Made by a program: the position numbers and the translations under genes
In this document: positions 7,859 through 63,910 of the stretch, in pieces
Numbering within the stretch: position 1 is the first letter of the stretch
How the letters are laid out: each line of letters starts with the position of its first letter
The notes under the pieces: generated by a model
The model's input: the letters and a program-made list of their open reading frames with translations, nothing else
Told to the model about the DNA's origin: nothing
The model's database searches: none
NCBI GenBank assembly: GCA_937862935.1
Contig: CALMEO010000055.1
Span: 19,927-83,926 of the forward strand
Direction of reading: 5' to 3'
DNA length: 64,000 nt
From: an uncultured bacterium
GTDB lineage: Bacteria > Patescibacteriota > Gracilibacteria > Absconditabacterales > Absconditicoccaceae

Positions 7859-7882
7859 TAACATACCTCCTATATAATGTAG

Positions 7883-7911
7883 AAGCCCATTATTAGATGG
7901 GTTTTCTTTTT
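7883..7911 (+). terminator. rho-independent terminator
   Basis: AAGCCCAT-TATTAG-ATGGGTTT stem-loop followed by TCTTTTT. Confidence 0.7.
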
Positions 7912-7916
7912 AGACT

Positions 7917-7924
7917 CTATTTAT
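7917..7924 (+). promoter_or_regulatory. CTATTTAT box
   Basis: 20 nt upstream of the terL ATG 7944, just after a terminator. Confidence 0.55.
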
Positions 7925-7925
7925 T

Positions 7926-7943
7926 AGTATATAATTATATACT
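7926..7943. repeat. 18-bp perfect palindrome abutting the terL start codon
   Basis: AGTATATAATTATATACT. Confidence 0.85.
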
Positions 7944-8774
7944 ATGAGTCAACCAGACGTAAAACAGTTGATAGCTCAAGAATATGTAAAGTGTGCTAAG
8001 GACCCGGCGTACTTTATGAGAAAATATTGCTATATTCAACATCCAACTAGAGGTAGAATTCTCTTTGGATTGTACCCTTTTCAAGAAGGGGTTCTACATT
8101 TATTTAGGGATCACAAATACATTATTACCTTAAAATCTAGACAGTTAGGGATTTCAACATTAGCAGCAGGATATGCACTATGGTTAATGTTATTTCACAA
8201 AGATAAAACAATCCTTACGTTAGCTATTACTCAAGCAACAGCTAGAAACCTTGTAACTAAAACAATTTTCATGTACGAAAATTTACCAAAATGGTTACAG
8301 TTACCTTTTCAAGAAAAAAACAAACTATCGTTAAGATTAACAAACGGATCTAAAATTACAGCTAAATCATCTAACCCAGATGCTGCACGTTCAGAAGCGG
8401 TATCACTACTTTTAATAGACGAGGCTGCTTTCATTGAAAACATTGAAGAAACTTATACAGCTGCTCAACAAACGTTAGCTACAGGGGGACAATGTATGGC
8501 ACTTTCTACACCTAACGGTATTGGTAACTGGTTTCATAAAACATGGGTGGATGCTGAATCAGGAGATAACGGTTTCATACCTGTTAAGTTACCTTGGACA
8601 GTTCACCCAGAAAGAGATCAGTCATGGAGAGATGAACAGGATAAAAAACTTGGAGTAAGAGCAGCAGCACAGGAATGTGATTGTCTCTGGGGGGATACCA
8701 TAGTTACCGTTAGGTATAACGAAACAGGGGAAATTATGGAAATGACACTTGAAGAGCTTTATAAACTTTTATAA
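7944..8774 (+). CDS. terL: terminase large subunit, N-terminal ATPase part fused to a 30-aa N-intein fragment
   Basis: KSRQLGIST (Walker A-like) and LLLIDEAAF (Walker B); ends ...AAQECD|CLWGDTIVTV...KLL*, an intein block A signature. Confidence 0.85.
   Translation: MSQPDVKQLIAQEYVKCAKDPAYFMRKYCYIQHPTRGRILFGLYPFQEGVLHLFRDHKYIITLKSRQLGISTLAAGYALWLMLFHKDKTILTLAITQATARNLVTKTIFMYENLPKWLQLPFQEKNKLSLRLTNGSKITAKSSNPDAARSEAVSLLLIDEAAFIENIEETYTAAQQTLATGGQCMALSTPNGIGNWFHKTWVDAESGDNGFIPVKLPWTVHPERDQSWRDEQDKKLGVRAAAQECDCLWGDTIVTVRYNETGEIMEMTLEELYKLL
8682..8771 (+). mobile_element. split intein N-fragment (IntN, 30 aa)
   Basis: CLWGDTIVTVRYNETGEIMEMTLEELYKLL; Cys1 plus the xxDT motif; resembles the short IntN of AceL-TerL-type atypical split inteins. 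Confidence 0.75.
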
Positions 8775-8775
8775 G

Positions 8776-8808
8776 AATGTGACTATTTATTGTAAAGACA
8801 GTCACATT
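8776..8808 (+). promoter_or_regulatory. hairpin enclosing the promoter box; 3' arm abuts the endonuclease ATG
   Basis: AATGTGACT (8776..8784) pairs with AGTCACATT (8800..8808), 9 bp; ATG at 8810. Confidence 0.5.
8783..8790 (+). promoter_or_regulatory. CTATTTAT box inside a hairpin loop
   Basis: 20 nt upstream of ATG 8810. Confidence 0.5.
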
Positions 8809-8809
8809 T

Positions 8810-9553
8810 ATGAAAAGTAATACACAAGCTTATTGGGACAGACTAAAAACTAAGTTGAAAGATTTAAACATCTTACCTTACGAGGATGTTTACAGTTTTC
8901 TAACATTGGATAATAATTACCTAAATTATTTAGGAAAAGCTAAGAATCGTACTCTTATTTCAGAAAATCTTGAAATGTATAAATCTATAATGTTTTATAC
9001 ACAACATCTAGAAGATTCTTTTAAACTGCAAAATTCTTATGCTGGTTTTTGGAATTTTTCACATAGGTTAAGGTTTATTGTAGAACATAATACTGAAATT
9101 ACTAGACTAAAATGTAAATGTGGAAAAAAATTAACTTGGACCACCTACTGTAGACATTGCCCAGATTATAAAAGAAACCAATTAGGAAAACCACATACAG
9201 AACTAACAAAAAGAAAGATGAGGTTATCTACACTAGATTACATAAAGACACTTAAAGGTCAAGTAGTACCCCGTTATAATAAAACAAGTATTACCGTTTT
9301 AGAAAACTATGCTAAGAAGCATAATTTAAGGTTAATGCATGCAGAGAATGGCGGCGAATTTTTCATTAAGGAACTTGGGTATTTTGTAGATGGGTACGAT
9401 CCTATAAACAATGTTGTTGTCGAATTTGATGAACGACATCATTTTACGTTAGACGGAAAACTAAAACAGCGAGATGTAGAAAGAGAGACGGAAATAAAAA
9501 AACTATTAAAATGCGAATTTATCAGAATAAGGTATGATCAAATACAAGAATAA
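8810..9553 (+). CDS. free-standing homing endonuclease-like gene (Zn finger plus Vsr/EDxHD-like PD-(D/E)XK core) between the intein halves
   Basis: CKCGKK...CRHCPDY and YFVDGYDPINNVVVEFDERHHF; sits between IntN and IntC. Confidence 0.6.
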   Translation: MKSNTQAYWDRLKTKLKDLNILPYEDVYSFLTLDNNYLNYLGKAKNRTLISENLEMYKSIMFYTQHLEDSFKLQNSYAGFWNFSHRLRFIVEHNTEITRLKCKCGKKLTWTTYCRHCPDYKRNQLGKPHTELTKRKMRLSTLDYIKTLKGQVVPRYNKTSITVLENYAKKHNLRLMHAENGGEFFIKELGYFVDGYDPINNVVVEFDERHHFTLDGKLKQRDVERETEIKKLLKCEFIRIRYDQIQE

Positions 9554-9857
9554 TCACACATTTCAAGTTCTAACACCCACGGGTTTTAAACCTTTTTCGG
9601 GGATTAGGCAAACTACTAAATCAAAAGTCGTAAATCTTACACTATCTGATGGCGTTACTGTAGTAGTATCACTAAAACACAAAGTTGTTGTCAATGGAAA
9701 AGAGATACTTGCTAAGGATTTAAAAGAAGGTGACCAAATTGGAAATTTTAACACTGTTGAAAAGATTGAAATATTGGAGAAACCAACATTACTATATGAC
9801 CTTGTTAATGTCGGTACAGACAATTTATATCTTACAGATTCTTTTACCTCGCATAAT
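9534..9857 (+). mobile_element. split intein C-fragment (IntC, 108 aa)
   Basis: Ends ...LLYDLVNVGTDNLYLTDSFTSHN followed by Cys+1 (intein blocks F/G). Confidence 0.75.
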
Positions 9858-10697
9858 TGTGATTTCCTATCTTCAGGGGATTCTGTTATTGAACCTGAGA
9901 TTCTTTCCTATTATGAGGAAACATTCCAAATTGATCCATTGGAAAAAAGAGGTGTTGATCACAATCTTTGGATATGGGAATATCCAGATTCACACAAATC
10001 TTACATGATAGTAGCCGACGTCTCTAGAGGAGATTCTACTGACTACTCCGCATTTCATATCTTTGATATTGAAACAGCAGCACAGATTGGAGAGTATAAA
10101 GGTAAACTTTCACCTAAAGATTTTGGTAATGTACTAGTAGCAATTGCTTCAGAATATAATGATGCACTACTGGTAGTGGAGAATGCTAACATTGGATGGG
10201 CAACCATCGAACAGATATTAGCTAGAGAATACAAAAATCTATATTACTCATCTAGGTCAGAAACAGAAACAGTTGAATCCTATATGGCTAAATACGAAAG
10301 GGATATGTTGGTACCGGGTTTTACAATGTCTCAACGTAGTAGACCATTGGTAATTGCAAAGTTGACAGAATATGTTAGAGAAAAATCTGTATTGATTAGA
10401 TCAAAGAGATTATTGTCAGAACTAAGGGTATTTGTTTGGAAGAATGGTAAAGCACAAGCACAAACAAATTATAATGACGACTTGGTAATGTCTTTTGCTA
10501 CAGGACTGTACGTAAGAGATACAGCAATAAGGTTAAGACAGCAGGGAATGGACTTAGCTAGAGCACAGTTATCTTCAATATCCTCTCTTAACCAACGAAA
10601 TCCTGTGGTGTATAATTCAACAACTTCTAACTACAATAATCCATATAAAATAGAAACCCCGTATGGACATGAAGACCTTACGTGGCTGTTAGAATAA
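9534..10697 (+). CDS. terL: C-intein fragment fused to terminase large subunit C-terminal nuclease part
   Basis: After SHN|CDFLSSGDSV come MIVADVSRGDSTDYSAF, VVENANIGW and NYNDDLVMSFA, acidic motifs like an RNase H-fold terminase nuclease. Confidence 0.85.
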   Translation: MIKYKNNHTFQVLTPTGFKPFSGIRQTTKSKVVNLTLSDGVTVVVSLKHKVVVNGKEILAKDLKEGDQIGNFNTVEKIEILEKPTLLYDLVNVGTDNLYLTDSFTSHNCDFLSSGDSVIEPEILSYYEETFQIDPLEKRGVDHNLWIWEYPDSHKSYMIVADVSRGDSTDYSAFHIFDIETAAQIGEYKGKLSPKDFGNVLVAIASEYNDALLVVENANIGWATIEQILAREYKNLYYSSRSETETVESYMAKYERDMLVPGFTMSQRSRPLVIAKLTEYVREKSVLIRSKRLLSELRVFVWKNGKAQAQTNYNDDLVMSFATGLYVRDTAIRLRQQGMDLARAQLSSISSLNQRNPVVYNSTTSNYNNPYKIETPYGHEDLTWLLE

Positions 10698-10703
10698 TGT
10701 AAA

Positions 10704-10711
10704 CTATTTAT
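10704..10711 (+). promoter_or_regulatory. CTATTTAT box
   Basis: 18 nt upstream of the portal ATG 10729. Confidence 0.5.
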
Positions 10712-10728
10712 TAAAAACAAATTTTAGA

Positions 10729-17612: not shown

Positions 17613-19265
17613 ATGAACTTAAACCAACTATTAGAAAGCTCAAATACGTACAAAACCTTGCAAGCAGATGCTGCACGTTTATCAACAAAATGGGCTAAGT
17701 CAGGACTATTAGAGGGGATCTCTAATGAAAATGACAGAAATAACATGTCAATGATTCTTGAGAATCAGGCAAAACAAATCATAGCTGAAGCTAATCAAAC
17801 TGGTACAGGTAATATCGGTACATCAACAGGAAACGCTGAGCAATGGGCAGGGGTAGCTCTTCCATTAGTACGTAAAGTATTCGCTCAAATTTCTGCTAAA
17901 GATTTCTTATCTGTTCAACCAATGAACTTACCATCTGGTCTAGTATTTTACTTAGATTTCAAATATGGTACAAATTCTGCAGGTCAATTCTCAGCAGGTG
18001 ATAATATGTACGGTAACGTTTCTACTGCTAACTCAAAAATGACTAAAGATGCTGATCCATCAGGAGGTCTTTACGGAGCTGGTAGATATGGGTACTCTAC
18101 AAACGATTATACATCTTCTACATTAACATGGCAAGCTACTTTAGCTGCAACTAAGTTTACTACAGGTTCTGCACTTGCAGGAGCTACTTGGGATGCTGCA
18201 TTAAATTACGATACAGTTGTATCTCAATCACTAAAAGGTGGTACACTGTTACAACTTAACGTAACATCAAGTGACTTAGGAGGTGTAAACTTTGCATCTA
18301 AATCAGTTAGATCATTCGCAGTGTCAGGATCAAACATTGTTAACTTCTATCCACAGTTTACTACAGTAACTGACGCAGGTGTTGTTACATTCCTTGTTTC
18401 TGCTTCTGCTGCTAATACAGTATCTGGTGTAGTTGTTAATTATGACGTACAACCGACTGATAACTCAAGAGGTGACTTTGAGGATGGAGCTACTAAAGTA
18501 GGAGCTGCTACTACAATTTCAATACCTGAAATAAACGTTTCATTAGCTTCTGAAGCAATTGTTGCTAAAACAAGAAAATTAAAAGCTCAATGGACTCCAG
18601 AATTCGCACAAGACTTAAATGCTTACCATTCAATTGATGCTGAAGCTGAATTAACATCATTACTTTCGGAATATATTTCAATGGAGATTGATTTAGAATT
18701 ACTTGATATGTTAATACAAGACGCTAGAACAACTGATTACTGGTCAGCGTATAACAACAAAGCTTGGAACGGATCTGCATTCGTATCACAAACTGATGGA
18801 TACTATAATACACAAGGACAATGGTTCCAAACTTTAGGAACTAAAATCCAAAAAGTATCTAATAAGATTCACCAAAAAACTTTAAGAGGTGGAGCTAACT
18901 TCTTAGTATGTTCTCCTTCTGTAGCTACAATCCTTGAATCAATACCGGGATATGCTGCTGAAACAAATGGTGATAAAATGGATTTCGCAATGGGTGTTCA
19001 AAAAGTAGGATCTTTAAACTCAAGATTTAGAGTTTATAAAAATCCTTACATGACTGAAAACGTGATTTTAATGGGTTACAGAGGTTCTCAATTCCTAGAA
19101 ACAGGAGCTGTTTATTCTCCATACATTCCATTAATGATGACTCCATTAGTATATGATCCTAATACACTTACACCAAGAAAAGGTATTATGACTCGTTACG
19201 CTAAGAAAATGATCAGACCGGAATTTTATGGAAAAATCTTTGTTAGTGATCTTGCTACAGTTTAA
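17613..19265 (+). CDS. major capsid protein
   Basis: 550 aa after the protease and scaffold genes; N-terminus (LSTKWAKSGLLEG...MILENQAKQ) resembles the T4 gp23 family; strong terminator follows. Confidence 0.75.
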   Translation: MNLNQLLESSNTYKTLQADAARLSTKWAKSGLLEGISNENDRNNMSMILENQAKQIIAEANQTGTGNIGTSTGNAEQWAGVALPLVRKVFAQISAKDFLSVQPMNLPSGLVFYLDFKYGTNSAGQFSAGDNMYGNVSTANSKMTKDADPSGGLYGAGRYGYSTNDYTSSTLTWQATLAATKFTTGSALAGATWDAALNYDTVVSQSLKGGTLLQLNVTSSDLGGVNFASKSVRSFAVSGSNIVNFYPQFTTVTDAGVVTFLVSASAANTVSGVVVNYDVQPTDNSRGDFEDGATKVGAATTISIPEINVSLASEAIVAKTRKLKAQWTPEFAQDLNAYHSIDAEAELTSLLSEYISMEIDLELLDMLIQDARTTDYWSAYNNKAWNGSAFVSQTDGYYNTQGQWFQTLGTKIQKVSNKIHQKTLRGGANFLVCSPSVATILESIPGYAAETNGDKMDFAMGVQKVGSLNSRFRVYKNPYMTENVILMGYRGSQFLETGAVYSPYIPLMMTPLVYDPNTLTPRKGIMTRYAKKMIRPEFYGKIFVSDLATV

Positions 19266-19381: not shown

Positions 19382-20785
19382 ATGAAAAGAGACAAGGATT
19401 ATACACTTCATGAATGTCAAATTTGTAAAACGGTTGTTCCGGTTTGTGGAATTGCAAGTCACCTTTATCACAAACATGATAAATTAAAGTCAGATGATTA
19501 TGCGAGAATGTATGGTGAATTCAGAAAAAAACACCTACATTTAGCTAACAGAAAAGATTTAAGTAATGTAAACTGTTTAGAATGTTTTCAAAAGTTCCCA
19601 TCACATAAATCCCTTATTCACCATATTAACAAAGATCATAAAGATCTCGGATGGGAAAAGTACTTTATCAAGCATTTTTTTAAGGGGATACACCCTACAT
19701 GTGCTTGTGGATGTGGACAAAATGTTAAACTGCTTCGACATGGTAAAAACGAAAATGGAGAAGTTGCGTACGCTAGAACAATGCTTCAAGGACATAATAA
19801 CAATCCCCCTGGATATAGGGTAAATACTCCACAGCAAAAAGTTAAAATGAGACTTGCTGCAATTAAAAGAATGTCAGAAGGTAAAGGGACTTTCTTCAAC
19901 TCAGGTACATCAAAAGGAGAGCAGGAACTTTATAAATTTATTCAAGATAACCTTCCCGGGGTAGAAATCATATCCAATGACAAAGTTCTACTTTCCGGAC
20001 TTGAAATAGATATCTTAATACCGGATAAAAAACTTGCAATAGAGTTTAACGGAGGTCATTTTCACAGTGACCTGTTTAAAGATAGGACATACCACCTTAA
20101 AAAAACTGAGGAGGTAATATCTCACGGATACAGGATGATTCACATATGGGAATCTGATTGGTATCTACGGAGGTCAATTGTAGAGTCAAACATATTAAAT
20201 ATTCTAGGTAAGACACCTAATAAGGTATATGCAAGAAATACTGTAGTGAAGGAAATTACTAATTCTGAAGCAACAAGATTTTGTATAGATAATCACCTTC
20301 AAGGGAGTTCTATCTCAAAATACAGGATTGGACTATTCCATAAAGGTGTCTTAGTAAGTGTTATGACATTTTCGAAACTCAGAGAAAGTGTAAGAATGAA
20401 ACACAAAGAAGGTTCCTACGAATTGGTAAGGTTTTGCAACAAGAAGGATTATACGGTAATTGGGGGTGCATCAAAACTATTTAGTTATTTTGTTCATAAG
20501 TACTCTCCTATGTATGTTATTAGTTATGCTAATAGAGATTGGAGTCTAGGTAACCTCTACTATAAACTAGGTATGGAGTTTAAGGGATTTACTCCCCCAG
20601 GATACTGGTATGTAAAATCTAAACACAAGTTTTCTAGAGTAATGTTTCAAAAACACAAACTAATCTCTAAAGGAAAAGACCCTAATAAGTCAGAGTATCA
20701 AATTATGATAGAAGATGGGTATGTAAGAGTCTGGGATTGTGGTAACTACAGGTTTTTATGGGAAAGAAGTAAATTAAGTGTTTAA
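19382..20785 (+). CDS. free-standing homing endonuclease-like protein (C2H2 Zn fingers plus Vsr/DUF559-like nuclease core)
   Basis: CQICK...HLYHKH and CLECF...HHINKDH; LEIDILIPDKKLAIEFNGGHFHSD; inserted between the capsid and phoH genes. Confidence 0.55.
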   Translation: MKRDKDYTLHECQICKTVVPVCGIASHLYHKHDKLKSDDYARMYGEFRKKHLHLANRKDLSNVNCLECFQKFPSHKSLIHHINKDHKDLGWEKYFIKHFFKGIHPTCACGCGQNVKLLRHGKNENGEVAYARTMLQGHNNNPPGYRVNTPQQKVKMRLAAIKRMSEGKGTFFNSGTSKGEQELYKFIQDNLPGVEIISNDKVLLSGLEIDILIPDKKLAIEFNGGHFHSDLFKDRTYHLKKTEEVISHGYRMIHIWESDWYLRRSIVESNILNILGKTPNKVYARNTVVKEITNSEATRFCIDNHLQGSSISKYRIGLFHKGVLVSVMTFSKLRESVRMKHKEGSYELVRFCNKKDYTVIGGASKLFSYFVHKYSPMYVISYANRDWSLGNLYYKLGMEFKGFTPPGYWYVKSKHKFSRVMFQKHKLISKGKDPNKSEYQIMIEDGYVRVWDCGNYRFLWERSKLSV

Positions 20786-55153: not shown

Positions 55154-55225
55154 TGGGTTATAGTGTAATGGTTAGCACAAAACACTTTGGCTGTTTTAGT
55201 CTAGGTTCGAATCCTAGTAAGCCAA
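55154..55225 (+). tRNA. tRNA-Gln(UUG)
   Basis: Acceptor TGGGTTA/TAAGCCA (U1-A72, one G.G mismatch), stem AAACA/TGTTT, loop CT-TTG-GC, T arm CTAGG-TTCGAAT-CCTAG. Confidence 0.8.
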
Positions 55226-55240
55226 CCGAGTGCTGTTTTT

Positions 55241-55273
55241 GTATTTCCTTCCTATTTATTAGAAAGGAAGTAC
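55241..55273 (+). promoter_or_regulatory. hairpin enclosing the promoter box upstream of the GIY-YIG gene
   Basis: GTATTTCCTT pairs with AAGGAAGTAC, 10 bp including one G.U; ATG at 55277. Confidence 0.5.
55252..55259 (+). promoter_or_regulatory. CTATTTAT box inside a hairpin loop
   Basis: 18 nt upstream of the GIY-YIG ATG 55277. Confidence 0.5.
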
Positions 55274-55276
55274 ATC

Positions 55277-55957
55277 ATGGCAAAAAGAGTATACGGTACA
55301 AGAAAAAAATATCATTTTATTTATAAAACTACAAATTTACTAAGTGGAAGATACTATATAGGAATGCATTCAACAGATGACCTGAATGACGGATATTTAG
55401 GATCGGGTACATTATTAAGAAGATCTATAAAAAAGCACGGTAAAGAAAACTTTAAAATAGAGATCTTAGAATTTTTAGATTCAAGGGAAGCTTTAGTAGC
55501 AAGAGAAAAAGAGATCATATCTCTTCAAGAAATTGCTAAGAAAGAATGTATGAATTTAAAAGTAGGAGGAGAAGGAGGATTCTCCAGCGAAGAGCATAAA
55601 CAAAAATTCCTACAAGGACGAGAGTGGGGAAAGCTTTTAGGAGCTAAAACAGGAGGAGATCTTAGACGAGGAGTAGGTTTAGAAAGCACACACAGAGCTC
55701 TGATTAGTTTAAAAATGAAAGAACACTATACAACAAATATAGGACACTTCAGCAATAAAACACATTCAGAACAGACTAAGAAAAAAATGTCAAATGCTAA
55801 AAAAGGAAAAGGATTAGCACAGACTAATTCACAATACGGAACTTGTTGGATCACCGATGAGTATTCCAATAAAAAAATAATAAAAGGAGAAACAATCCCA
55901 GAAGGATGGAGATTAGGAAGAAAAATAAAAAAGCAATCCCTCTGCCACGGGTATTAG
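55277..55957 (+). CDS. GIY-YIG homing endonuclease
   Basis: YHFIYKTTNLLSGRYYIGMH...GYLGSG; C-terminal WITDE...PEGWRLGRKIK; last 10 nt overlap tRNA-Pro. Confidence 0.85.
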   Translation: MAKRVYGTRKKYHFIYKTTNLLSGRYYIGMHSTDDLNDGYLGSGTLLRRSIKKHGKENFKIEILEFLDSREALVAREKEIISLQEIAKKECMNLKVGGEGGFSSEEHKQKFLQGREWGKLLGAKTGGDLRRGVGLESTHRALISLKMKEHYTTNIGHFSNKTHSEQTKKKMSNAKKGKGLAQTNSQYGTCWITDEYSNKKIIKGETIPEGWRLGRKIKKQSLCHGY

Positions 55958-56023
55958 AGGAGTCCGGTCTATCTCGCTGCATTTGGGATGCAGAGCACGC
56001 AGGTTCGAATCCTGCATACCCGA
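55948..56023 (+). tRNA. tRNA-Pro(UGG)
   Basis: Acceptor CGGGTAT/ATACCCG, stem CTGCA/TGCAG, loop TT-TGG-GA, T arm GCAGG-TTCGAAT-CCTGC. Confidence 0.85.
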
Positions 56024-56081
56024 CGAGTGAGACTGTTACTAATTCATAGAACTATAGAGTGTTTGCATAGAATTAGATTAT

Positions 56082-56153
56082 TCCCTCGTAGCAAATCGGT
56101 ATAGGCAATAGACTTTTAATCTATGGGATCAGGTTCAACTCCTGACGGGGGAA
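56082..56153 (+). tRNA. tRNA-Lys(UUU)
   Basis: Acceptor TCCCTCG/CGGGGGA, stem ATAGA/TCTAT, loop CT-TTT-AA, T arm TCAGG-TTCAACT-CCTGA. Confidence 0.8.
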
Positions 56154-56243
56154 CAAAAATCAACTAGTCACTGTAAAACCAGTGGGCGTCAGTAAGTATT
56201 CTGAGCGACGTTTAAATCCTGAAAGCAATTGTTGATTTTATTT

Positions 56244-56314
56244 GCCTCGATGATGTAATGGTAGCGTCGTTGTTTTACATGCAACAGGTGGAAGTTCGAT
56301 TCTTTCTCGAGGTA
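56244..56314 (+). tRNA. tRNA-Val(UAC)
   Basis: Acceptor GCCTCGA/TCGAGGT, stem GTTGT/GCAAC, loop TT-TAC-AT, T arm GGAAG-TTCGATT-CTTTC. Confidence 0.85.
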
Positions 56315-56360
56315 CTGTAGACTTTTTGAAAAGTTAGCCTATTCATTATAAACAGTAGAT
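56315..56360 (+). repeat. conserved GIY-YIG 5' flank, copy 1 (after tRNA-Val)
   Basis: CTGTAGACTTTTTGAAAAGTTAGCCTATTCATT... Confidence 0.9.
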
Positions 56361-57005
56361 ATGGCTAACATCAAAGAGAATAAAAAATACCACTACACTT
56401 ATAAGACAACAAATCTTATAAATGGTAGATATTATCTGGGAATGCACTCAACTAACCGTTTAGATGACGGTTACTTAGGAAGTGGTAAAAGACTTTATTA
56501 TGAATTAAATAAATACGGTAGAGACAATTTTAAGTTTGAACTACTAGAGCAATTTAATTCAAGAGAGGAATTAGTTCAAGCTGAAATTAATCTAATAACA
56601 GAACAAGATTTAAAAAATATAAACTGTTTAAACCTGAGTAAAGGAGGTAGTGGTGGTATTCATAACGAGGATCATTACAAGGCTTTTGTAAAAGGACCTA
56701 AGAATACAAGTGGGTGGATCTTGAACATGAAAAACCTAAAAGCAAACCCAGAATGGGTGAAATGGCATAGGGAATTAGTTATAAAAGGTCTTAGAGAGTA
56801 TTACAAAGTTTCAGAAGGACCTTTTAAAGGTAAGCAACATAAACCTGAGACTATTGAAAAAATGAAAGCGTCTCACAAAGGAGCAGGGAAAGGAACTAAT
56901 AATTCTCAATATGGTACTTGTTGGATTACAAACGAAACAGAAAATAAAAAAAATATACAAAGGAGATCTAATCCCAGAAGGTTGGAGATTGGGACGAAAA
57001 ATTAA
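56361..57005 (+). CDS. GIY-YIG homing endonuclease, C-terminus frameshifted in an A8 run
   Basis: MANIKENKKYHYTYKTTNLINGRYYLGMH; the paralogue-like ending IPEGWRLGRKIK is encoded in the +1 frame after 56946..56953. Confidence 0.75.
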   Translation: MANIKENKKYHYTYKTTNLINGRYYLGMHSTNRLDDGYLGSGKRLYYELNKYGRDNFKFELLEQFNSREELVQAEINLITEQDLKNINCLNLSKGGSGGIHNEDHYKAFVKGPKNTSGWILNMKNLKANPEWVKWHRELVIKGLREYYKVSEGPFKGKQHKPETIEKMKASHKGAGKGTNNSQYGTCWITNETENKKNIQRRSNPRRLEIGTKN

Positions 57006-57012
57006 ATAAACT

Positions 57013-57091
57013 GGGGTTATTGAGCAGGTGGTGAGCTCAGCGGTCTGTAAAATCGTGATTATTCTTGTAGGTTCGATTCCTACTAGCCCCA
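57013..57091 (+). tRNA. tRNA-Tyr(GUA)
   Basis: Acceptor GGGGTTA/TAGCCCC, D arm GAGC..GCTC, stem GCGGT/ATCGT, loop CT-GTA-AA, 10-nt variable region, T arm GTAGG-TTCGATT-CCTAC. Confidence 0.8.
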
Positions 57092-57158
57092 CAGTCAAAT
57101 TTTCTAACGTATGAAAAAACATTCAGTCTTCTAAGTACTAATCGTAACTTAGAAAAAG

Positions 57159-57434
57159 ATGTCAAGAAGTCGAAAAAAACCTTACTGTAAGGATAAGGGA
57201 ATGTCAACACAGGAATATTGGAAAGTTATCCGACATGAGTGGAAACAAACACTAAAACAAAATTATTGGAAAGATAGTTTGTACTTTAGAAACCCTGAGG
57301 AGATAATTAATGATTGGACAAGATGTGATTACATTTGGTTCATTAAAGAAAGTAGACCTTACTGGGGTGATGAAGAACCGATGCACTGGTTTGGATACAC
57401 TAAAGAAGATGTTAAAAAATACTCTAGAAAATAG
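57159..57434 (+). CDS. hypothetical Trp/Lys-rich small protein
   Basis: 91-aa ORF between tRNA-Tyr and tRNA-Phe. Confidence 0.5.
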   Translation: MSRSRKKPYCKDKGMSTQEYWKVIRHEWKQTLKQNYWKDSLYFRNPEEIINDWTRCDYIWFIKESRPYWGDEEPMHWFGYTKEDVKKYSRK

Positions 57435-57441
57435 GGTACTC

Positions 57442-57514
57442 GGAGCAGTGGCAGATCAGGTGATTGCGCTAGTCTGAAAAACTAGAGGAACGAGATCGTT
57501 ACTCGTCTGCTCCA
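57442..57514 (+). tRNA. tRNA-Phe(GAA)
   Basis: Acceptor GGAGCAG/CTGCTCC, stem CTAGT/ACTAG, loop CT-GAA-AA, T arm ACGAG-ATCGTTA-CTCGT (unusual A54/T58). Confidence 0.75.
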
Positions 57515-57626
57515 CAAAGTAGTTCTTGTCCCTTGTAAGGTGTGAAAGAATATATAAACGGTTTTTGCAGGTTCAAATCCTGGGTCTTGCAACTTTTTGC
57601 AAGTAGAACCGTGAGAATTACGAATT

Positions 57627-57698
57627 GGATTGTTAGCTCAGAGGCAGAGCGGTTGTTTGTTAGGCAACGGGTCGGGATTTCGAAATTCCCACAATCCT
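57627..57698 (+). tRNA. tRNA-Asn(GUU)
   Basis: Acceptor GGATTGT/ACAATCC, D arm GCTC-AGAGGCA-GAGC, stem GTTGT/GCAAC, loop TT-GTT-AG. Confidence 0.85.
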
Positions 57699-57704
57699 CA
57701 AAAT

Positions 57705-57776
57705 TGCTCTATCGTATAAAGGTTATTACGGATGACTGTTAATCATTTTATCTAGGTTCAAGTCCTAGTGGAGCAG
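57705..57776 (+). tRNA. tRNA-Asn(GUU), second copy with a divergent body
   Basis: Acceptor TGCTCTA/TGGAGCA, stem GATGA/TCATT, loop CT-GTT-AA, T arm CTAGG-TTCAAGT-CCTAG. Confidence 0.65.
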
Positions 57777-57897
57777 CAAGGGGTGTTAGTATCTCCTGAC
57801 GGGTTTAGATGTGTAACTTTCCCTCCAACAACTAACATTATAATTGGATTAATAAGGAACAACTCTTCGTAAGGTTATCAGATTAAACGTTACAACT

Positions 57898-57969
57898 GCT
57901 CCTATAGTAGAATGGTTAGCACACATCTCTGATAAGGATGAAATGGAGGTTCAATTCCTTCTAGGAGTA
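57898..57969 (+). tRNA. tRNA-Ile(GAU)
   Basis: Acceptor GCTCCTA/TAGGAGT, stem CATCT/GGATG, loop CT-GAT-AA, T arm GGAGG-TTCAATT-CCTTC. Confidence 0.8.
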
Positions 57970-57976
57970 CAGAAAT

Positions 57977-58063
57977 GGAGAATAGTCTAATATTGGTTTG
58001 TAGTGGCATCCTGCTAAGATGTTCCTGGTAAAACAGGTGAGAGTTCGATTCTCTTGTTCTCCG
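57977..58063 (+). tRNA. tRNA-Ser(GCU)
   Basis: Acceptor GGAGAAT/GTTCTCC, stem GCATC/GATGT, loop CT-GCT-AA, variable arm CCTG-GTAAAA-CAGG, T loop TTCGATT. Confidence 0.85.
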
Positions 58064-58192
58064 CAAAAACCTGTTCCCCGTCCTCACAAAGCATCTAAGG
58101 AATGCAGGAGTAGAATAGTACGTTCGGGGCCTTGTGGTAGGACACTTTAAAATCTAAAGTACAAAGATAAGTTAACAGGTTCTTATCAAATT

Positions 58193-58261
58193 GCCGAAGG
58201 ATCAGGTGATCGAGAATGGCTCATATCCGTTTTCAGGGTGGATCGTTACCACTCTTCGGTA
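58193..58261 (+). tRNA. tRNA-Met(CAU) (or Ile2/lysidine type), compact 69 nt
   Basis: Acceptor GCCGAAG/CTTCGGT, stem AATGG/CCGTT, loop CT-CAT-AT, T arm GGTGG-ATCGTTA-CCACT, short D arm. Confidence 0.65.
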
Positions 58262-58363
58262 CAAAAAATATCTAGGTAACAACCTGAGTTAAAGAAAGAA
58301 CTGGTTCACTCCTTCGTAATATTGTAACCCGCGGCTACAAAAAAGAAGAGGTATTTTTTACAC

Positions 58364-58437
58364 GGTGTATGTAGCTAAATGGTAAAGCGCTTGATTGTGG
58401 TTCAAGTCATTTGCGGGTTCAAGTCCCGTCGTACACC
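58364..58437 (+). tRNA. tRNA-His(GUG) with encoded G-1
   Basis: G-1 opposite C73, acceptor GTGTATG/CGTACAC, stem CTTGA/TCAAG, loop TT-GTG-GT, T arm GCGGG-TTCAAGT-CCCGT. Confidence 0.85.
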
Positions 58438-58571
58438 CAACAAATTAAGAAAAAGCTAATGGAGCTGTAAGTTAATAAGCAACCGGGATGGTGGATTTAA
58501 TCCTGGTGCGAAAAGTAAAACCAGAGGGATAAGTCCAATAAAAACCTCAAAAACTTACCTTAATTTTAAAT

Positions 58572-58644
58572 GCCTCTGTGGTGGAATGGAAGACACAACG
58601 AGTTTAAGCCTCGTACGCTGCAGGTTCGACTCCTGTCAGAGGTA
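58572..58644 (+). tRNA. tRNA-Leu(UAA) with a short (5-nt) variable loop
   Basis: Acceptor GCCTCTG/CAGAGGT, Leu-type D arm GTG-GAATGGAAGA-CAC, stem ACGAG/CTCGT, loop TT-TAA-GC, variable ACGCT, A73. Confidence 0.75.
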
Positions 58645-58896
58645 CAAAAAATTAAAGTGACGGAATTAGACGTTAAGAGAGATGAAGTGTTTATAACATC
58701 AGGTTGCGACTGGTGTATGTAAAACCAAGTTAAACTACCGTTAACTAAGTTTCTAGTACGAAGATTGATCCTCGTCGCAGAAGAAGTAGTATTAGAGATG
58801 TACCACAGGGGTTATAGACAATTATAACTGTTGGGTTTAGGTCGAAATGTTTAACATGTAGGTACCCAGTCCTACCTTTAATTTTTATTAACTATT

Positions 58897-59193
58897 ATGA
58901 AAGAGTTACCAGATACATTTAAGGAGTATATCATATATCAGTTAGAATATGGTAAAATCAAGATGTGTAGTGCATTTACTAGTCTGTTTTTTCATAAAGG
59001 ATATACAGGATTTAGGTACAGAGAGGTCTACAGTTTAGTGCAAGATGAAATTAGGAGATTTCGTACTGAAGAAGGTGTAAAAAGGAAGGAACAAGAACGT
59101 CTGTTAGAGGAAAAGAAACGGATGGCTAATCAACAGAGAAGTCTAAGTATGAAACGTTATTGGGAGCATAAGAAAAATTTCAAACAGGTTTAA
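58897..59193 (+). CDS. hypothetical small basic protein
   Basis: 98-aa ORF within the tRNA island. Confidence 0.5.
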   Translation: MKELPDTFKEYIIYQLEYGKIKMCSAFTSLFFHKGYTGFRYREVYSLVQDEIRRFRTEEGVKRKEQERLLEEKKRMANQQRSLSMKRYWEHKKNFKQV

Positions 59194-59269
59194 ACACTAA
59201 AGAAGTAAATTATTTAAACTCAAGGAATCGGGCATATGAAAAAGTGACTTCTAACTTAATGTTAAAAAT

Positions 59270-59341
59270 GGTCCTATAGTTTAATTGGAAAAATTTAAGA
59301 ATACGAATCTTAGGTTAGGGGTTCGAATCCTCTTAGGACTT
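59270..59341 (+). tRNA. tRNA-Arg(ACG)
   Basis: Acceptor GGTCCTA/TAGGACT, stem TAAGA/TCTTA, loop AT-ACG-AA, T arm AGGGG-TTCGAAT-CCTCT. Confidence 0.8.
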
Positions 59342-59352
59342 CAAAAAAGATT

Positions 59353-59423
59353 GCCCTATTAGTTTAACGGAAGAACATATCTCTTCTAAAGATAGAGTCT
59401 TGGTTCGAGTCCAAGATGGGGTT
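59353..59423 (+). tRNA. tRNA-Arg(UCU)
   Basis: Acceptor GCCCTAT/ATGGGGT, stem TATCT/AGATA, loop CT-TCT-AA, T arm CTTGG-TTCGAGT-CCAAG. Confidence 0.8.
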
Positions 59424-59427
59424 CAAT

Positions 59428-59487
59428 ATATATGTAAAAACATATAAAAAAGTTAATATTAGGTAATTTATATGTTTTTACATATAT
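59428..59487. repeat. perfect 21-bp inverted repeat with an 18-nt spacer
   Basis: ATATATGTAAAAACATATAAA (59428..59448) versus TTTATATGTTTTTACATATAT (59467..59487). Confidence 0.9.
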
Positions 59488-59503
59488 CTAAAAATTTACT
59501 AAT

Positions 59504-59574
59504 ACGTCAGTGGTGTAATGGTAACATACCGGTCTCCAAAACCGACGATAAGAGTTCGAATCTCTTTTGACGTG
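59504..59574 (+). tRNA. tRNA-Trp(CCA)
   Basis: Acceptor ACGTCAG/TTGACGT, anticodon arm CCGGT-CTCCAAA-ACCGA (as in bacterial tRNA-Trp), T arm AAGAG-TTCGAAT-CTCTT. Confidence 0.8.
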
Positions 59575-59618
59575 CTGTAGACTTTTTGAAAAGTTAGCCT
59601 ATTTATTGAAAAATAAGT
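59575..59618 (+). repeat. conserved GIY-YIG 5' flank, copy 2 (after tRNA-Trp)
   Basis: CTGTAGACTTTTTGAAAAGTTAGCCTATTTATT... Confidence 0.9.
59599..59606 (+). promoter_or_regulatory. CTATTTAT box
   Basis: 13 nt upstream of the GIY-YIG ATG 59619. Confidence 0.5.
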
Positions 59619-60269
59619 ATGGCTAACATCAAAGAGAATAAAAAATATCATTTTACATATAAGACAACAAATCTTATAAACAAAAGGTATTACTTAGGGA
59701 TGCATTCAACTAACCGTTTAGATGACGGATATATAGGAAGCGGTAAAAGACTTTATTACGAATTAAACAAATACGGTAAAGAGAATTTTAAATTTGAAAT
59801 ACTAAAACAGTTTAATTCAAGGGAGCAGTTAGTTGAAGCTGAAACAAGCTTAATAAGTGAAGAAGTTTTGAAAGATCCAAACTGTCTTAACATGGTAGTA
59901 GGAGGTTCAGGAGGAAATGTAGGTAAAGGAGGAGAGCACTTAGGAGGAGATTGCTGGGCAGCTGCTAATAAATATTGGAAAACAGAAGAAGGATTCAAAA
60001 AGAAATCAGAGACTGCAAAAAAAGTAGCTAAGAGAAGAATACAAGAGGGTACTTGGAATGTCTTTCAAAAAGGAAACCAGGTATGGAAAGGAAGAAAGCA
60101 TACACCTGAGACTATTGAAAAAATGAAAGAGACAAAAAAAGGTCATGGGAAAGGTATAAATAATTCACAATTTGGAAAATGTTGGATAACTAACGAAGTT
60201 GAAAGTAAGAAAATTCACAAAGGAGAACTAATTCCAGAAGGATGGAGATTAGGCCGAAAGATAAAATAA
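59619..60269 (+). CDS. GIY-YIG homing endonuclease
   Basis: MANIKENKKYHFTYKTTNLINKRYYLGMH...GYIGSG; ends PEGWRLGRKIK. Confidence 0.85.
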   Translation: MANIKENKKYHFTYKTTNLINKRYYLGMHSTNRLDDGYIGSGKRLYYELNKYGKENFKFEILKQFNSREQLVEAETSLISEEVLKDPNCLNMVVGGSGGNVGKGGEHLGGDCWAAANKYWKTEEGFKKKSETAKKVAKRRIQEGTWNVFQKGNQVWKGRKHTPETIEKMKETKKGHGKGINNSQFGKCWITNEVESKKIHKGELIPEGWRLGRKIK

Positions 60270-60329
60270 CTTTGGCATGAAAAAAGAATTTGATGCTCAC
60301 TAGGTTTATTAACCTAAAAGTGAGCAAAA

Positions 60330-60515
60330 ATGCGAATTAAACATTATACTAACAGAGAGTATAAAAAACAAAAACGTAGAGAGTATCCGGAATGGGATAA
60401 ATGGTTTGAGGATAACTGGAGTAAAAAGTCTAAAATATGGGCTTTCAAGTACAGAGAATACAGAACATGGAAACATAGCCGAAAAACTCAATACAAAACT
60501 AAATTGTTTCATTAA
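60330..60515 (+). CDS. hypothetical small basic protein
   Basis: 61-aa Lys/Arg/Trp-rich ORF. Confidence 0.4.
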   Translation: MRIKHYTNREYKKQKRREYPEWDKWFEDNWSKKSKIWAFKYREYRTWKHSRKTQYKTKLFH

Positions 60516-60526
60516 AAAAGGAAATC

Positions 60527-61033
60527 ATGAGTAAGTACAGAAAAACACTCGTAGTGGATTCAAGCTTTATTGCAAGAAGCATTATACCTGCTGAAAGAGC
60601 ATTCGTGATTTCATATAAAGGTAATGCTGAAGTAATTGCTGATCACCCAGAATCGTTTGGGTTAGTAAATCCTGAATTAGACATTAAAAAACCTTCAATC
60701 ATCAGGGTTTTTAAGTTTGTAAAGCAAAACATTCTAAAAGTACCTCTTACAAGAGAGAATATCTACAGAAGAGATAATTATGAATGTGTTTACTGTGGAA
60801 GTGATAATGTCAAAACATTAACATTGGACCACGTAATACCTCAATCAAAAGGAGGAAAAGACAGTTGGGATAATCTAGTTACAGCTTGTAAAAGATGCAA
60901 TGGTGAAAAGTCAGACTTAACATTAGAGGAATATGGAAAAGAAATTCCAACTCCATACCGTCCACATTACTTAATGTTAATGAAACAGATGCATGACATC
61001 CCAGAAGAATGGAAACATTTTTTATTATTTTAG
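60527..61033 (+). CDS. HNH endonuclease
   Basis: CVYCGS...LDHVIPQSKGGKDSWDNLVTACKRCNGEKSD. Confidence 0.85.
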   Translation: MSKYRKTLVVDSSFIARSIIPAERAFVISYKGNAEVIADHPESFGLVNPELDIKKPSIIRVFKFVKQNILKVPLTRENIYRRDNYECVYCGSDNVKTLTLDHVIPQSKGGKDSWDNLVTACKRCNGEKSDLTLEEYGKEIPTPYRPHYLMLMKQMHDIPEEWKHFLLF

Positions 61034-61036
61034 GAT

Positions 61037-61195
61037 ATGGAATTTTACAAAATAGGTAACACAAAACTTGAATTAGGATTTCGTAAGCTGTTACAAATGT
61101 CAGACAGAAAAGCTAGAATAGAAGGAATTGAAAAACTAACAAAAACCAAAATTATTATTGAAAATAATAATGTATTTATAATATGGTTAAAATAA
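61037..61195 (+). CDS. small hypothetical protein (52 aa), not in ORF track
   Basis: ATG 4 nt after the HNH gene stop. Confidence 0.35.
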   Translation: MEFYKIGNTKLELGFRKLLQMSDRKARIEGIEKLTKTKIIIENNNVFIIWLK

Positions 61196-61270
61196 AACAC
61201 CTGCTACGTAGTCACTACAGGACAATACGTACAGACAGGGAAGAAAAGATCAGCCCAGGTGTTTTAAATT

Positions 61271-61340
61271 GGCTTGTCTGGTCTTGGAGGCCGGTTGGAT
61301 TGCAAACCCAATAGAGACAGTTCGATTCTGTCACAAGCCT
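61271..61340 (+). tRNA. tRNA-Cys(GCA)
   Basis: Acceptor GGCTTGT/ACAAGCC, loop TT-GCA-AA, T arm GACAG-TTCGATT-CTGTC, U73 discriminator. Confidence 0.8.
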
Positions 61341-61359
61341 CAAAAAGAGTTTTAAAAAT

Positions 61360-61432
61360 AGTTGGTAGATTAAAATATTATCACTATATTAAAAGTATAA
61401 TAATAAGGTCATTGACATATTGGATAAAATTT
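61360..61432 (+). repeat. about 72-bp dispersed repeat, copy 2
   Basis: See 54986..55057. Confidence 0.8.
61362..61390 (+). promoter_or_regulatory. sigma70-like TTGGTA-N17-TATATT element (copy C)
   Basis: Part of the 72-bp repeat, upstream of the Leu-Thr-Gly-Glu tRNA run. Confidence 0.45.
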
Positions 61433-61654
61433 AAGACATTAAATTAACATAGTCGTCACTAGCAGGCGTATTAATCTTTCCGTTATAGACTAAGCGGTCG
61501 TAATGTAGTGTTACATCTCAATAAAACGAGATTGGATCCGATTTAGAAACAAGTACATGTTTCCTTATCTGATTTGGAGTAACTCCTTAGGATGCTTTTT
61601 TAAAGATTGAATATTTTAGGTAATCCAATTCCTATTGACTATGTTAATTAAAAT

Positions 61655-61728
61655 TGCTCCGGTGGTGGAATTGGTAGACACGCTTGACTTAGGATCAAGA
61701 TATTGAGGGTTCGAATCCCTCCTGGAGT
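61655..61728 (+). tRNA. tRNA-Leu(UAG) with a short (5-nt) variable loop
   Basis: Acceptor GCTCCGG/CTGGAGT, canonical Leu D arm GTG-GAATTGGTAGA-CAC, stem CTTGA/TCAAG, loop CT-TAG-GA, variable ATATT, A73. Confidence 0.75.
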
Positions 61729-61800
61729 ACAAAATTAGAGTTAGCTTATAGTAAAGCACCTGAAAAGGATAACGGATACGAAAACCGGCTCTAATTAATT

Positions 61801-61872
61801 TGCCGCTAAAGCATAAAAGGTGATGCACTTGTTTTGTACACAAGACAACGGAGTTCGATTCTTCGTAGCGGC
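61801..61872 (+). tRNA. tRNA-Thr(UGU)
   Basis: Acceptor GCCGCTA/TAGCGGC, D arm GCAT..ATGC, stem CTTGT/ACAAG, loop TT-TGT-AC. Confidence 0.85.
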
Positions 61873-61879
61873 TCAAAAA

Positions 61880-61951
61880 TGCGAATGTCGTATAATGGAT
61901 ATTATTTTTGACTTCCAATCAAAAGATGGCAGTTCGATTCTGCTCATTCGC
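61880..61951 (+). tRNA. tRNA-Gly(UCC)
   Basis: Acceptor GCGAATG/CATTCGC, stem TTTGA/TCAAA, loop CT-TCC-AA, T arm GGCAG-TTCGATT-CTGCT. Confidence 0.85.
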
Positions 61952-62079
61952 TCAAAATTTACCTCAGAGAGGATAAGTTGTGAGGCTACCGTACCTTGGC
62001 ACTTACAACCGTAATGGGGACTTGCAAGGTCTTTAATCCCAAGAGTAAAAGGACGTGAGGGATTGGGTAAATTTTTAAC

Positions 62080-62151
62080 TGCTACCGTCGTCTAACGGCT
62101 AGGACATAACACTTTCACTGTTAAAAAGAGGGTTCGATTCCCTTCGGTAGT
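62080..62151 (+). tRNA. tRNA-Glu(UUC)
   Basis: Acceptor GCTACCG/CGGTAGT, D arm GTCT..GGAC, stem TAACA/TGTTA, loop CT-TTC-AC. Confidence 0.85.
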
Positions 62152-62218
62152 ACAATGTACTTTTTTCATAATTGATTTATTTAATGTAAATTGATATTTA
62201 TTTTTAAATAAATCAATT

Positions 62219-63769: not shown

Positions 63770-63837
63770 TTAAACCATATACCGGTTTTAATAATACATT
63801 GAAAGCATGTAGAATTGAAGTCGAGGTACTGTAAAAT

Positions 63838-63910
63838 GGGTCGGTAGCATAAATGGCAAATGCGCTTGATTTGCAATCAGGAAGATTGGGTTCGAATCCC
63901 ACCGTATCCA
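63838..63910 (+). tRNA. tRNA-Ala(UGC) with an imperfect acceptor stem
   Basis: G1-C72, G2-C71, G3.U70 and U4-A69 are present; the inner acceptor pairs need a bulged T; D arm GCAT..ATGC; loop TT-TGC-AA. Confidence 0.65.

Follow-up and report, generated by a model that had tools for sequence, protein, structure and literature searches.

A phage terminase gene fractured by an atypically split intein and a putative homing endonuclease cassette

Organization of the fractured terminase locus

The window analysed here is a stretch of 64,000 nucleotides (nt) from contig CALMEO010000055.1 (assembly GCA_937862935.1), and the element of interest within it is the gene for the large subunit of a phage terminase (TerL), which is broken into two open reading frames (ORFs) that carry the halves of a split intein and enclose a third, free-standing ORF. 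All three ORFs lie on the + strand. ORF1 (7944..8774, 276 amino acids (aa)) begins with the TerL N-extein (7944..8681, 246 aa), the ATPase half of the enzyme with a Walker A-like KSRQLGIST and a Walker B LLLIDEAAF; its C-terminus ...AAQECD runs directly into the N-terminal intein half (IntN, 8682..8774), which consists of the 30 aa CLWGDTIVTVRYNETGEIMEMTLEELYKLL plus a TAA stop and contains intein block A only (Cys1 with codon 8682-8684, G4 and D5-T6). A 35-nt spacer (8775..8809), which is also the 5′ untranslated region (5′UTR) of the following gene, leads to ORF2 (8810..9553, 247 aa), a free-standing putative homing endonuclease gene with an N-terminal helical domain, Cys4 codons at 9113-9160, a NUMOD3-like helix at 9185-9223 and a nuclease domain at about 9338-9532. 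ORF3 (9534..10697, 387 aa) starts within the end of ORF2, with an overlap of 20 nt (9534-9553), and shares its reading frame with ORF1; ORF2 lies in a different frame. The first 108 aa of ORF3 are the C-terminal intein half (IntC, 9534..9857, MIKYKNNH...LYLTDSFTSHN), which holds block B, blocks F/G, the penultimate His and the terminal Asn, and these are followed by the TerL C-extein (9858..10697, 279 aa plus stop), the nuclease half, which begins with Cys+1 (codon 9858-9860) and reads CDFLSSGDSVIE...

Profile matches agree with this division. ORF1 matches Pfam Terminase_6N (E 2.8e-12) and phrog_5989 (E 1.8e-44), and the part of ORF3 downstream of IntC matches terminase phrog_24361 (E 7.7e-14). 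The original prediction, made from the DNA letters without database searches, had described a terminase ATPase half with a 30-aa block-A tail, a 35-nt gap, a 247-aa ORF with a Cys4 finger and an EFDExHH core, and an overlapping third ORF with a 108-aa IntC, Cys+1 and the terminase nuclease half; all of these features were found where it had placed them, and the finger and core residues are conserved in 40-45 homologues of ORF2.

The spacer can form a 10-bp hairpin (GAAUGUGACU/AGUCACAUUU) whose 3′ arm abuts the AUG of ORF2, and an outer stem that pairs 8765-8770 with 8813-8818 encloses the start codon. The spacer RNA folds at -15.1 kcal/mol (z -3.5), and 0/200 shuffled sequences fold equally well; a regulatory role of the hairpin in translation of the nuclease is plausible. 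Further upstream, a terminator-like hairpin with a T-run (7882..7905) lies between an upstream 418-aa ORF and the start of TerL, and the fractured TerL may therefore head its own transcription unit.

Splice junction and uninterrupted relatives

When IntN, the gap, ORF2 and IntC are removed, the predicted spliced product is a TerL of 525 aa with the junction peptide ...AAQECD-CDFLSSGDSVIEPEILSYYEETFQIDPLEK. Over its whole length this product aligns at 79% identity with the TerL of Flavobacterium phage vB_FspM_immuto, which is uninterrupted and 524 aa long; the junction AAQECD↓CDFLSSG (here and below an arrow marks the boundary between extein and intein, or the corresponding position) is gapless in the alignment, and AAQECDCDFLSSGDSVIE is identical in both proteins. 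At the DNA level megablast aligns the N-extein (query bases 44-741) with the immuto TerL gene at 79.8% identity, and the match stops at the Cys1 codon, which is the insertion point. An even closer relative is a metagenomic protein, P0271, which is an uninterrupted TerL with 95% identity to the spliced product across all 525 residues and an identical AAQECD-CDFLSSG; its gene, on a contig of IMG 3300059473, has the same neighbours in the same order as in the window: the upstream ORFs are shared, and a 618-aa portal and a 283-aa ORF follow. The intein-less site of P0271- and immuto-type alleles reads CAGGAATGTGAT↓TGTGATTTC. The join of QECD to CDFLSSG that had been proposed from the letters thus coincides with the linker of natural, uninterrupted enzymes.

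More than 100 other uninterrupted TerL relatives are 76-84% identical to the spliced product. Because uninterrupted TerLs occur in such close relatives, the insertion is, on these alignments, a presence/absence polymorphism, as a mobile element would give. The guanine plus cytosine content is 31% in the insert, 36% in the exteins and 33.5% in the window, a difference that is weak as a sign of foreign origin and is not used as an argument.

Identity and class of the intein

IntC matches chain B of PDB 6DSL (6dsl_B, 'Consensus engineered intein CatC') over almost its full length with an E-value of 2.7e-15. IntN alone, at 30 aa, has two PDB matches only, both of which are intein N-termini; one of them is CatN (6dsl_A), matched end to end and weakly (E 0.78). 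A profile (A3) of 23 diverse reconstituted IntN+IntC sequences from related loci matches CatC at 9.5e-26, gp41-1 at 3.7e-12 and VidaL at 1.3e-5, then RadA, DnaE, DnaX and other inteins, and in the whole PDB all nine of its matches with E<=0.01 are inteins, with no non-intein match. NCBIfam TIGR01445 (intein_Nterm) matches the fused IntN+IntC over positions 1-83 of 83; this match runs across the split, and block A is therefore supplied by IntN and block B by IntC. Pfam Intein_splicing matches 20/23 family members, with the window sequence below the gathering threshold (E 5.7e-5). Block B of IntC is S46-x-x-H49, which corresponds to S76/H79 in the numbering of the fused intein, and the full HINT catalytic set is present as C1, S76-x-x-H79, H137-N138 and Cys+1.

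The 30/108 split fits the atypically split TerL intein class. A review (PMC11766414) gives an IntN of 25 aa for AceL-TerL, an IntN of 37 aa that can be trimmed to 27 for GOS-TerL, and a 30-aa IntN with a 104-aa IntC for Cat-TerL, and describes all three as trans-splicing in vitro. IntN lengths in the family examined here are 30-38 aa. The window intein shares with AceL-, GOS- and Cat-TerL (Thiel 2014; Bachmann & Mootz 2015; Stevens 2018; PDB 6DSL) a short IntN (25/37/30 aa there, 30 aa here), a long IntC (about 104-122 aa there, 108 aa here) and a TerL host, and with AceL and Cat the Cys1/Cys+1 nucleophiles; it is nevertheless a separate, diverged member of the family that is known here from its sequence alone. 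The flanks of the Cat construct, FE↓ and ↓CE, are compatible with QECD↓CDF, a comparison of sites that rests on the Cat flanks and the relatives examined here. The assignment to the AceL-TerL class made in the original prediction is thus upheld by the CatC matches and by the pairing of a short IntN with a long IntC, and the similarity of IntN and IntC to the Hint fold, which it had left to profile searches, is evident in a profile that finds CatC, gp41-1, VidaL and, in the PDB, inteins only.

The intervening nuclease

ORF2 contains four cysteines (Cys102/104/114/117) in a CxC-x9-CxxC arrangement and a core that reads ...VDGYD...VVVEFDERHH... Its homologues form 162 clusters at 90% identity. 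H177, N180 and H211 are invariant in both nuclease alignments, with D194, E208 and D222 also invariant in one of them (A2), and E179, D197, E205 and D207 are nearly invariant among the homologues. No Pfam domain was found in the full-length relatives of about 245 aa, none covers the nuclease domain in any of the 162 clusters, and ORF2 has no match in PHROG or NCBIfam. Pfam matches occur only in longer or more distant homologues and concern N-terminal DNA-binding modules (NUMOD3, ROS/MucR, CapR). The C-terminal ~120 aa of ORF2 are common to proteins with other N-terminal modules, among them NUMOD3 repeats, ROS/MucR and other zinc ribbons. NUMOD3 is found in 29/40 relatives with a best E-value of 2.6e-33; the match of ORF2 itself is weak (E 0.72, aa 126-138). 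A few relatives have weak matches to DUF559, MTES_1575 or PvuRts1I_N, and PADLOC gives a weak match to mREase_II, a methyl-directed restriction enzyme (E 2e-4).

AlphaFold (AF2) models are confident, with a predicted local distance difference test score of 89 for the whole protein and 83 for the nuclease domain. The top Foldseek matches are Toxoplasma mitoribosomal proteins (E 0.016), and weaker ones, for the domain model, include Vsr (1vsr, E 0.26, template modelling (TM) scores 0.41/0.38) and I-Bth0305I (3r3p_B, E 0.33, TMt 0.48, 85/98 residues), with other weak matches to PvuRts1I/AbaSI, cap-snatching nucleases and Hjc, which have restriction-endonuclease-like/PD-(D/E)xK folds. Candidate EDxHD residues (D194/D197, E205, D207, E208, H211, D222) are conserved, with no significant structural superposition to place them at Vsr-equivalent positions. 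ORF2 is thus a putative homing endonuclease with a PD-(D/E)xK/Vsr-like core, as modelled. Like I-Bth0305I of the EDxHD family (PDB 3R3P; Taylor et al. 2011, PMC3239194), it is bipartite, with N-terminal NUMOD DNA binding and a small C-terminal nuclease domain; EDxHD/Vsr-like enzymes with conserved acidic and His residues likewise occur within fractured genes (PMC3239194). Unlike I-Bth0305I, ORF2 has an extra helical domain of ~95 aa, a Cys4 motif and an E-x-D-E-x-x-H core. It had been suggested that the locus has the layout of a fractured gene with a Vsr-like endonuclease. The layout holds; the Vsr-like label is weak, since its Foldseek E-values are 0.26-0.33 and profile searches give no match.

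The full-length form of the nuclease, of about 245 aa, occurs only at the TerL QECD↓C site among the loci inspected, and tblastn detects no other copy of the nuclease or of the intein in the window.

Origin of the split

A third allelic state is represented by P0318, a TerL relative of 672 aa found on 23 contigs, in which a contiguous mini-intein of 148 aa occupies the same QECD↓C site and the nuclease is absent. This mini-intein is colinear with the window IntN, the seven in-frame codons after its stop and IntC, with a gap of only 3 aa (...EYLL/KST/RI..., where KST fills the gap). Past the stop of IntN, the IntN frame in the window reads ECDYLL-TAA (8775..8795), corresponding to the loop of P0318, which reads ...IQEPEYLL..., and in many related fractured loci (including L016-L030) IntN ends in ...QECDYL(L) followed by a stop. 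The colinearity with P0318 pinpoints the place where the nuclease cassette broke the intein; on this comparison the cassette occupies a loop some 37 residues after the start of the intein, a position other than the canonical endonuclease insertion site. From the endings of IntN in relatives and the colinearity with P0318 it follows that IntN here is truncated, and by these alignments it is shortened from about 37 to 30 aa through a CAA-to-TAA change. On the same comparison, the 35-nt gap consists in part of former coding sequence, which now serves as the 5′ arm of the hairpin before the nuclease start.

In a second fractured subgroup (L031-L071 in IMG/VR), IntN stops at about 30 aa, and 20-50 nt before the nuclease start the non-coding spacer contains a conserved DNA motif, (T)ATAC(A/G)CAAGA(A/G)TGT(G/A)A(T/A/C)TGT. 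The motif reads QEC(D/E)C, nearly identical to the TerL N-extein junction CAAGAATGTGATTGT, and in L037, the one locus checked, neither ORF shares its frame. One possibility is that the motif is left over from the intein loop; another is that it acts as a homing-site-like operator of the nuclease gene, for which autorepression by I-TevI is an analogue.

Distribution and relatives

A scan of IMG/VR with the nuclease alignment yielded 404 loci encoding an ORF2-type nuclease. Among the best 80 of the 404, which were inspected, essentially all with enough flanking sequence show ...AAQECD↓CLWG(D/E)(S/T)... upstream and ...SHN↓CDF... downstream. With IntC as query, an exhaustive HMMER search identified 489 clusters (50% identity representatives, E<=1e-3); it superseded a word-index search with a 120-aa IntC fragment, which had given one match only and was uninformative. 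In the best 149 of the 489 clusters the IntC-like region is N-terminal in 102, many of them proteins of about 350-450 aa, which are split forms, and internal in 47, mostly right after an IntN-like segment; the latter are interpreted as contiguous mini-inteins that occupy this site and the Walker B site. The same fractured arrangement surrounds two full-length relatives of the nuclease, on contigs of 184 kb and 192 kb, and a distant NUMOD3-type relative of the nuclease is free-standing among baseplate genes.

Variants of the arrangement occur within the IMG/VR loci. In L078-L092 the intein lies two residues upstream, AAQE↓C...HN↓CD(T/A/C)(E/D)F..., before the first and not the second Cys of the CDCD motif, and in a few of these loci SSN or NHN replaces SHN at the C-terminus of the intein. 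The locus L010 (ERZ24794645), on the 192-kb contig, encodes a TerL N-half of 736 aa with an additional LAGLIDADG-type intein besides the split intein; its neighbouring portal product of 1510 aa has two Intein_splicing matches, and the morphogenesis module is heavily intein-colonised.

The intein family extends to cultured phages. In Vibrio phage VP-1 (MH363700) a homologous IntC opens the ORF of the TerL C-half, at the same QE.D↓C...N↓C.FL site and with a short IntN; unlike in the window, IntN at QEYD↓C continues in frame into a fused GIY-YIG nuclease. VP-1 also has a mini-intein at Walker A of TerL. In Escherichia Krischvirus phages such as vB_Eco_TB34 (OX001802), IntC likewise opens the TerL C-half ORF, with the insertion at Walker B (IDE↓C); unlike in the window, a Zn-finger nuclease is fused in frame to IntN and overlaps the IntC ORF by 20 nt. 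In Campylobacter Fletchervirus, for example CPX (NC_016562), an IntC-bearing TerL C-half ORF follows a neck gene (gp13-like), and the CPX record has no annotated TerL N-half within 3 kb upstream of that ORF. None of the VP-1, TB34 and CPX records has an intein annotation, and the pieces are labelled as terminase or DNA-packaging genes.

Comparison with described fractured genes

Fractured genes were described by Dassa, London, Stoddard, Schueler-Furman & Pietrokovski (2009, NAR, PMC2677866) as same-strand arrangements of a host N-terminal part with IntN, a spacer of 27-51 nt, a free-standing endonuclease with a 5′UTR hairpin, and an IntC with the host C-terminal part that overlaps the endonuclease gene by 6-69 bp. 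The window locus has two collinear same-strand ORFs that end and begin in split-intein halves (TerL-N+IntN and IntC+TerL-C), a free-standing endonuclease gene after a 35-nt spacer, the nuclease nature of which comes from weak fold and family matches, and both the 5′UTR hairpin and the overlap (20 nt). The closest parallel is the gp17-like 'Terminase' locus from Lake Gatun that is part of the same description (PMC2677866) and was later called GOS-TerL: it has the same terminase host and three-ORF layout, and a similarly unusual break, with an IntC of 122 aa there (108 aa here) that retains every N-terminal motif except N1. The Lake Gatun locus is reported there as a single partial metagenomic assembly, whereas the window locus is complete and lies within a 64-kb phage contig; for it, moreover, P0271 provides a near-isogenic allele with an empty site and P0318 an allele with a contiguous mini-intein.

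The window locus therefore belongs to an already described class and is not a new kind of locus; it is complete and unusually well contextualised. The original prediction had held that the setting in an intact phage morphogenesis operon was what made it special, and this was overstated, since a fractured gp17-like terminase is already in the 2009 description and the intein family occurs in cultured phages.

Proposed trans-splicing and competing explanations

We consider it very probable that this is the TerL gene of a T4-like, Immutovirus-related (Flavobacterium-phage-like) phage, fractured so that split-intein halves flank a homing endonuclease cassette, and that its two products are trans-spliced. 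Such a locus would have arisen when a mini-intein entered TerL at QECD↓CDF, in the conserved linker that joins the ATPase domain to the nuclease domain, and a free-standing homing endonuclease cassette then invaded the intein loop about 30-37 residues past Cys1, leaving an atypically split intein with a 30-aa IntN and a 108-aa IntC. The three ORFs would be expressed from the same strand, with a late transcript giving TerL-N-IntN and IntC-TerL-C; the short, probably disordered IntN would thread into the nearly complete IntC and rebuild the HINT fold, in the manner that the review describes for Cat-TerL (PMC11766414). Class-1 trans-splicing, with a Cys1 thioester, transfer to Cys+1 and Asn cyclisation, would then join QECD to CDF in a seamless 525-aa TerL. 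The nuclease would cut intein-less TerL alleles of co-infecting relatives, recombinational repair would spread intein and nuclease as a unit, and the start-codon hairpin probably keeps translation of the nuclease low.

Conservation of the intein halves is consistent with this scheme. Among the 23 family members C1, G4, H79 (the block B His), S136, H137 and N138 are invariant and S76 is present in at least 90%, and the +1 residue is Cys in 53/53 unique loci. The ratio of nonsynonymous to synonymous substitution (dN/dS) is about 0.39 for IntN and about 0.38 for IntC, and both intein halves are, by this measure, under purifying selection. Several points weigh on the other side. Part of the invariance of Cys1, of Cys+1 and of the terminal Asn stems from the regular expressions that were used to extract the sets of loci, and it carries over to the alignment derived from them. 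A dN/dS near 0.4 denotes constraint but of a relaxed kind, and synonymous sites are possibly near saturation. RNAalifold on eight loci gives no consensus structure for the hairpin, and relatives fold nearby in differing registers. For the nuclease, Foldseek returned nothing at E<=1e-3 with either the whole protein or, subsequently, the domain-only model, a search of the PDB with the nuclease profile A1 (hmmsearch) brought up neither 3r3p nor Vsr at E<=10, and hhalign probabilities stayed below 3% both for E. coli Vsr and for a Campylobacter phage Hef; nuclease activity and target are deduced from context. Trans-splicing is likewise deduced, from sequence.

The last point leaves some room for TerL halves that function unspliced, either with the intein fragments as a non-covalent dimerisation device or by self-assembly of the halves, as has been described for the intein-less fractured NrdA of phage Aeh1, which assembles without splicing (PMC3045599). 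The ligated product is not directly seen here, as this alternative would have it. We nevertheless regard it as improbable. Cys1, the block B S-x-x-H, the His-Asn pair and Cys+1 are all kept across highly diverged loci and would be superfluous for mere association; the class relatives AceL-, GOS- and Cat-TerL are reported to trans-splice (PMC11766414); and the break falls in the linker between two domains that are required to act as a single motor polypeptide.

It is less probable still that the stop at 8772 and the gap reflect an assembly or sequencing error, or that TerL is a pseudogene in a defective genome. The window does come from a metagenome assembly, and IntN here has a premature stop relative to relatives. 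However, the identical ORF2 protein is found on 15 contigs, and of these six places were inspected: the set of 276-, 247- and 387-aa ORFs is present in 6/6 assemblies from six samples (Logan, ENA and NCBI GCA_035909635.1), one of which (L002) is 99.7% identical to the window DNA with no indels. The stop after IntN, for which the original prediction had asked read-level confirmation, and the three-ORF layout thus recur in six assemblies and in about 60 diverged IMG/VR loci, and because the six assemblies are independent, assembly error is largely ruled out. As to decay, diverged relatives retain the split with stops of their own, both halves appear to be under purifying selection, and the seven residues lost from IntN lie in a part that is described as dispensable in GOS-TerL, whose 37-aa IntN tolerates trimming to 27 aa (PMC11766414).

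A bypass at the level of RNA or translation, through a group I/II intron carrying the nuclease ORF or through programmed readthrough or frameshifting to a contiguous precursor, could draw on the presence of Vsr-like nucleases in group I introns, on the in-frame fusion of nuclease and IntN in cultured phages VP-1 and TB34 and on the shared frame of ORF1 and ORF3, and is just as implausible, since no Rfam intron or other RNA family matches 7500-11000 even at E<=1 (on which ground an intron or other RNA element was rejected), the break is flanked directly by intein block A on one side and blocks B/F/G on the other, each in the frame of its TerL half, and the frame-0 stretch between IntN and IntC holds several stops. 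None of the computations that could have contradicted the original prediction went against it, and its interpretation of the locus as a trans-spliced fractured TerL is supported.

Other features of the window

All window ORFs of at least 150 aa are on the + strand. A 467-aa ORF (19382..20785, + strand) lies directly after the major head protein gene (17613..19265) and matches the PHROG homing endonuclease phrog_3339 (E 4e-100) and the HNH endonuclease phrog_559 (E 5e-84). With it the head module carries the window's second free-standing homing-endonuclease-like gene, which is unrelated to ORF2. A cluster of 21 tRNA genes, all on the + strand and covering 18 amino acids, occupies 55154..63909.

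Significance

The added value of this locus is modest and lies in the allelic series, the trimming of IntN by a premature stop, and the indicated abundance of a split class held to be rare together with an uncatalogued nuclease family. For phage annotation pipelines it is a caution against calling two 'terminase' genes. The occurrence of more than 400 IMG/VR loci for one nuclease family, and of split forms in about two thirds of the best 149 of 489 IntC clusters, suggests that the 'atypical' split class is abundant, and new short-IntN inteins for protein labelling can readily be drawn from this class.

Relatives with 78-95% TerL identity display three states, namely an empty site, a contiguous mini-intein, and a split intein with a nuclease. 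With this allelic series the gene-breaking model of Dassa et al. can be tested directly, and the loop in which the break occurred is located precisely. We suggest tentatively that ORF2 may represent a large homing endonuclease family outside all libraries searched, that together with the allelic series it might form a natural, segregating record of the passage from a mini-intein to an atypically split intein through nuclease invasion at a non-canonical loop, and that such inteins, which work on protein engineering regards as rare, might be a common route to the terminase of aquatic T4-like phages. The window locus offers a complete natural case in which an enzyme essential for virion assembly is expected to require protein trans-splicing.

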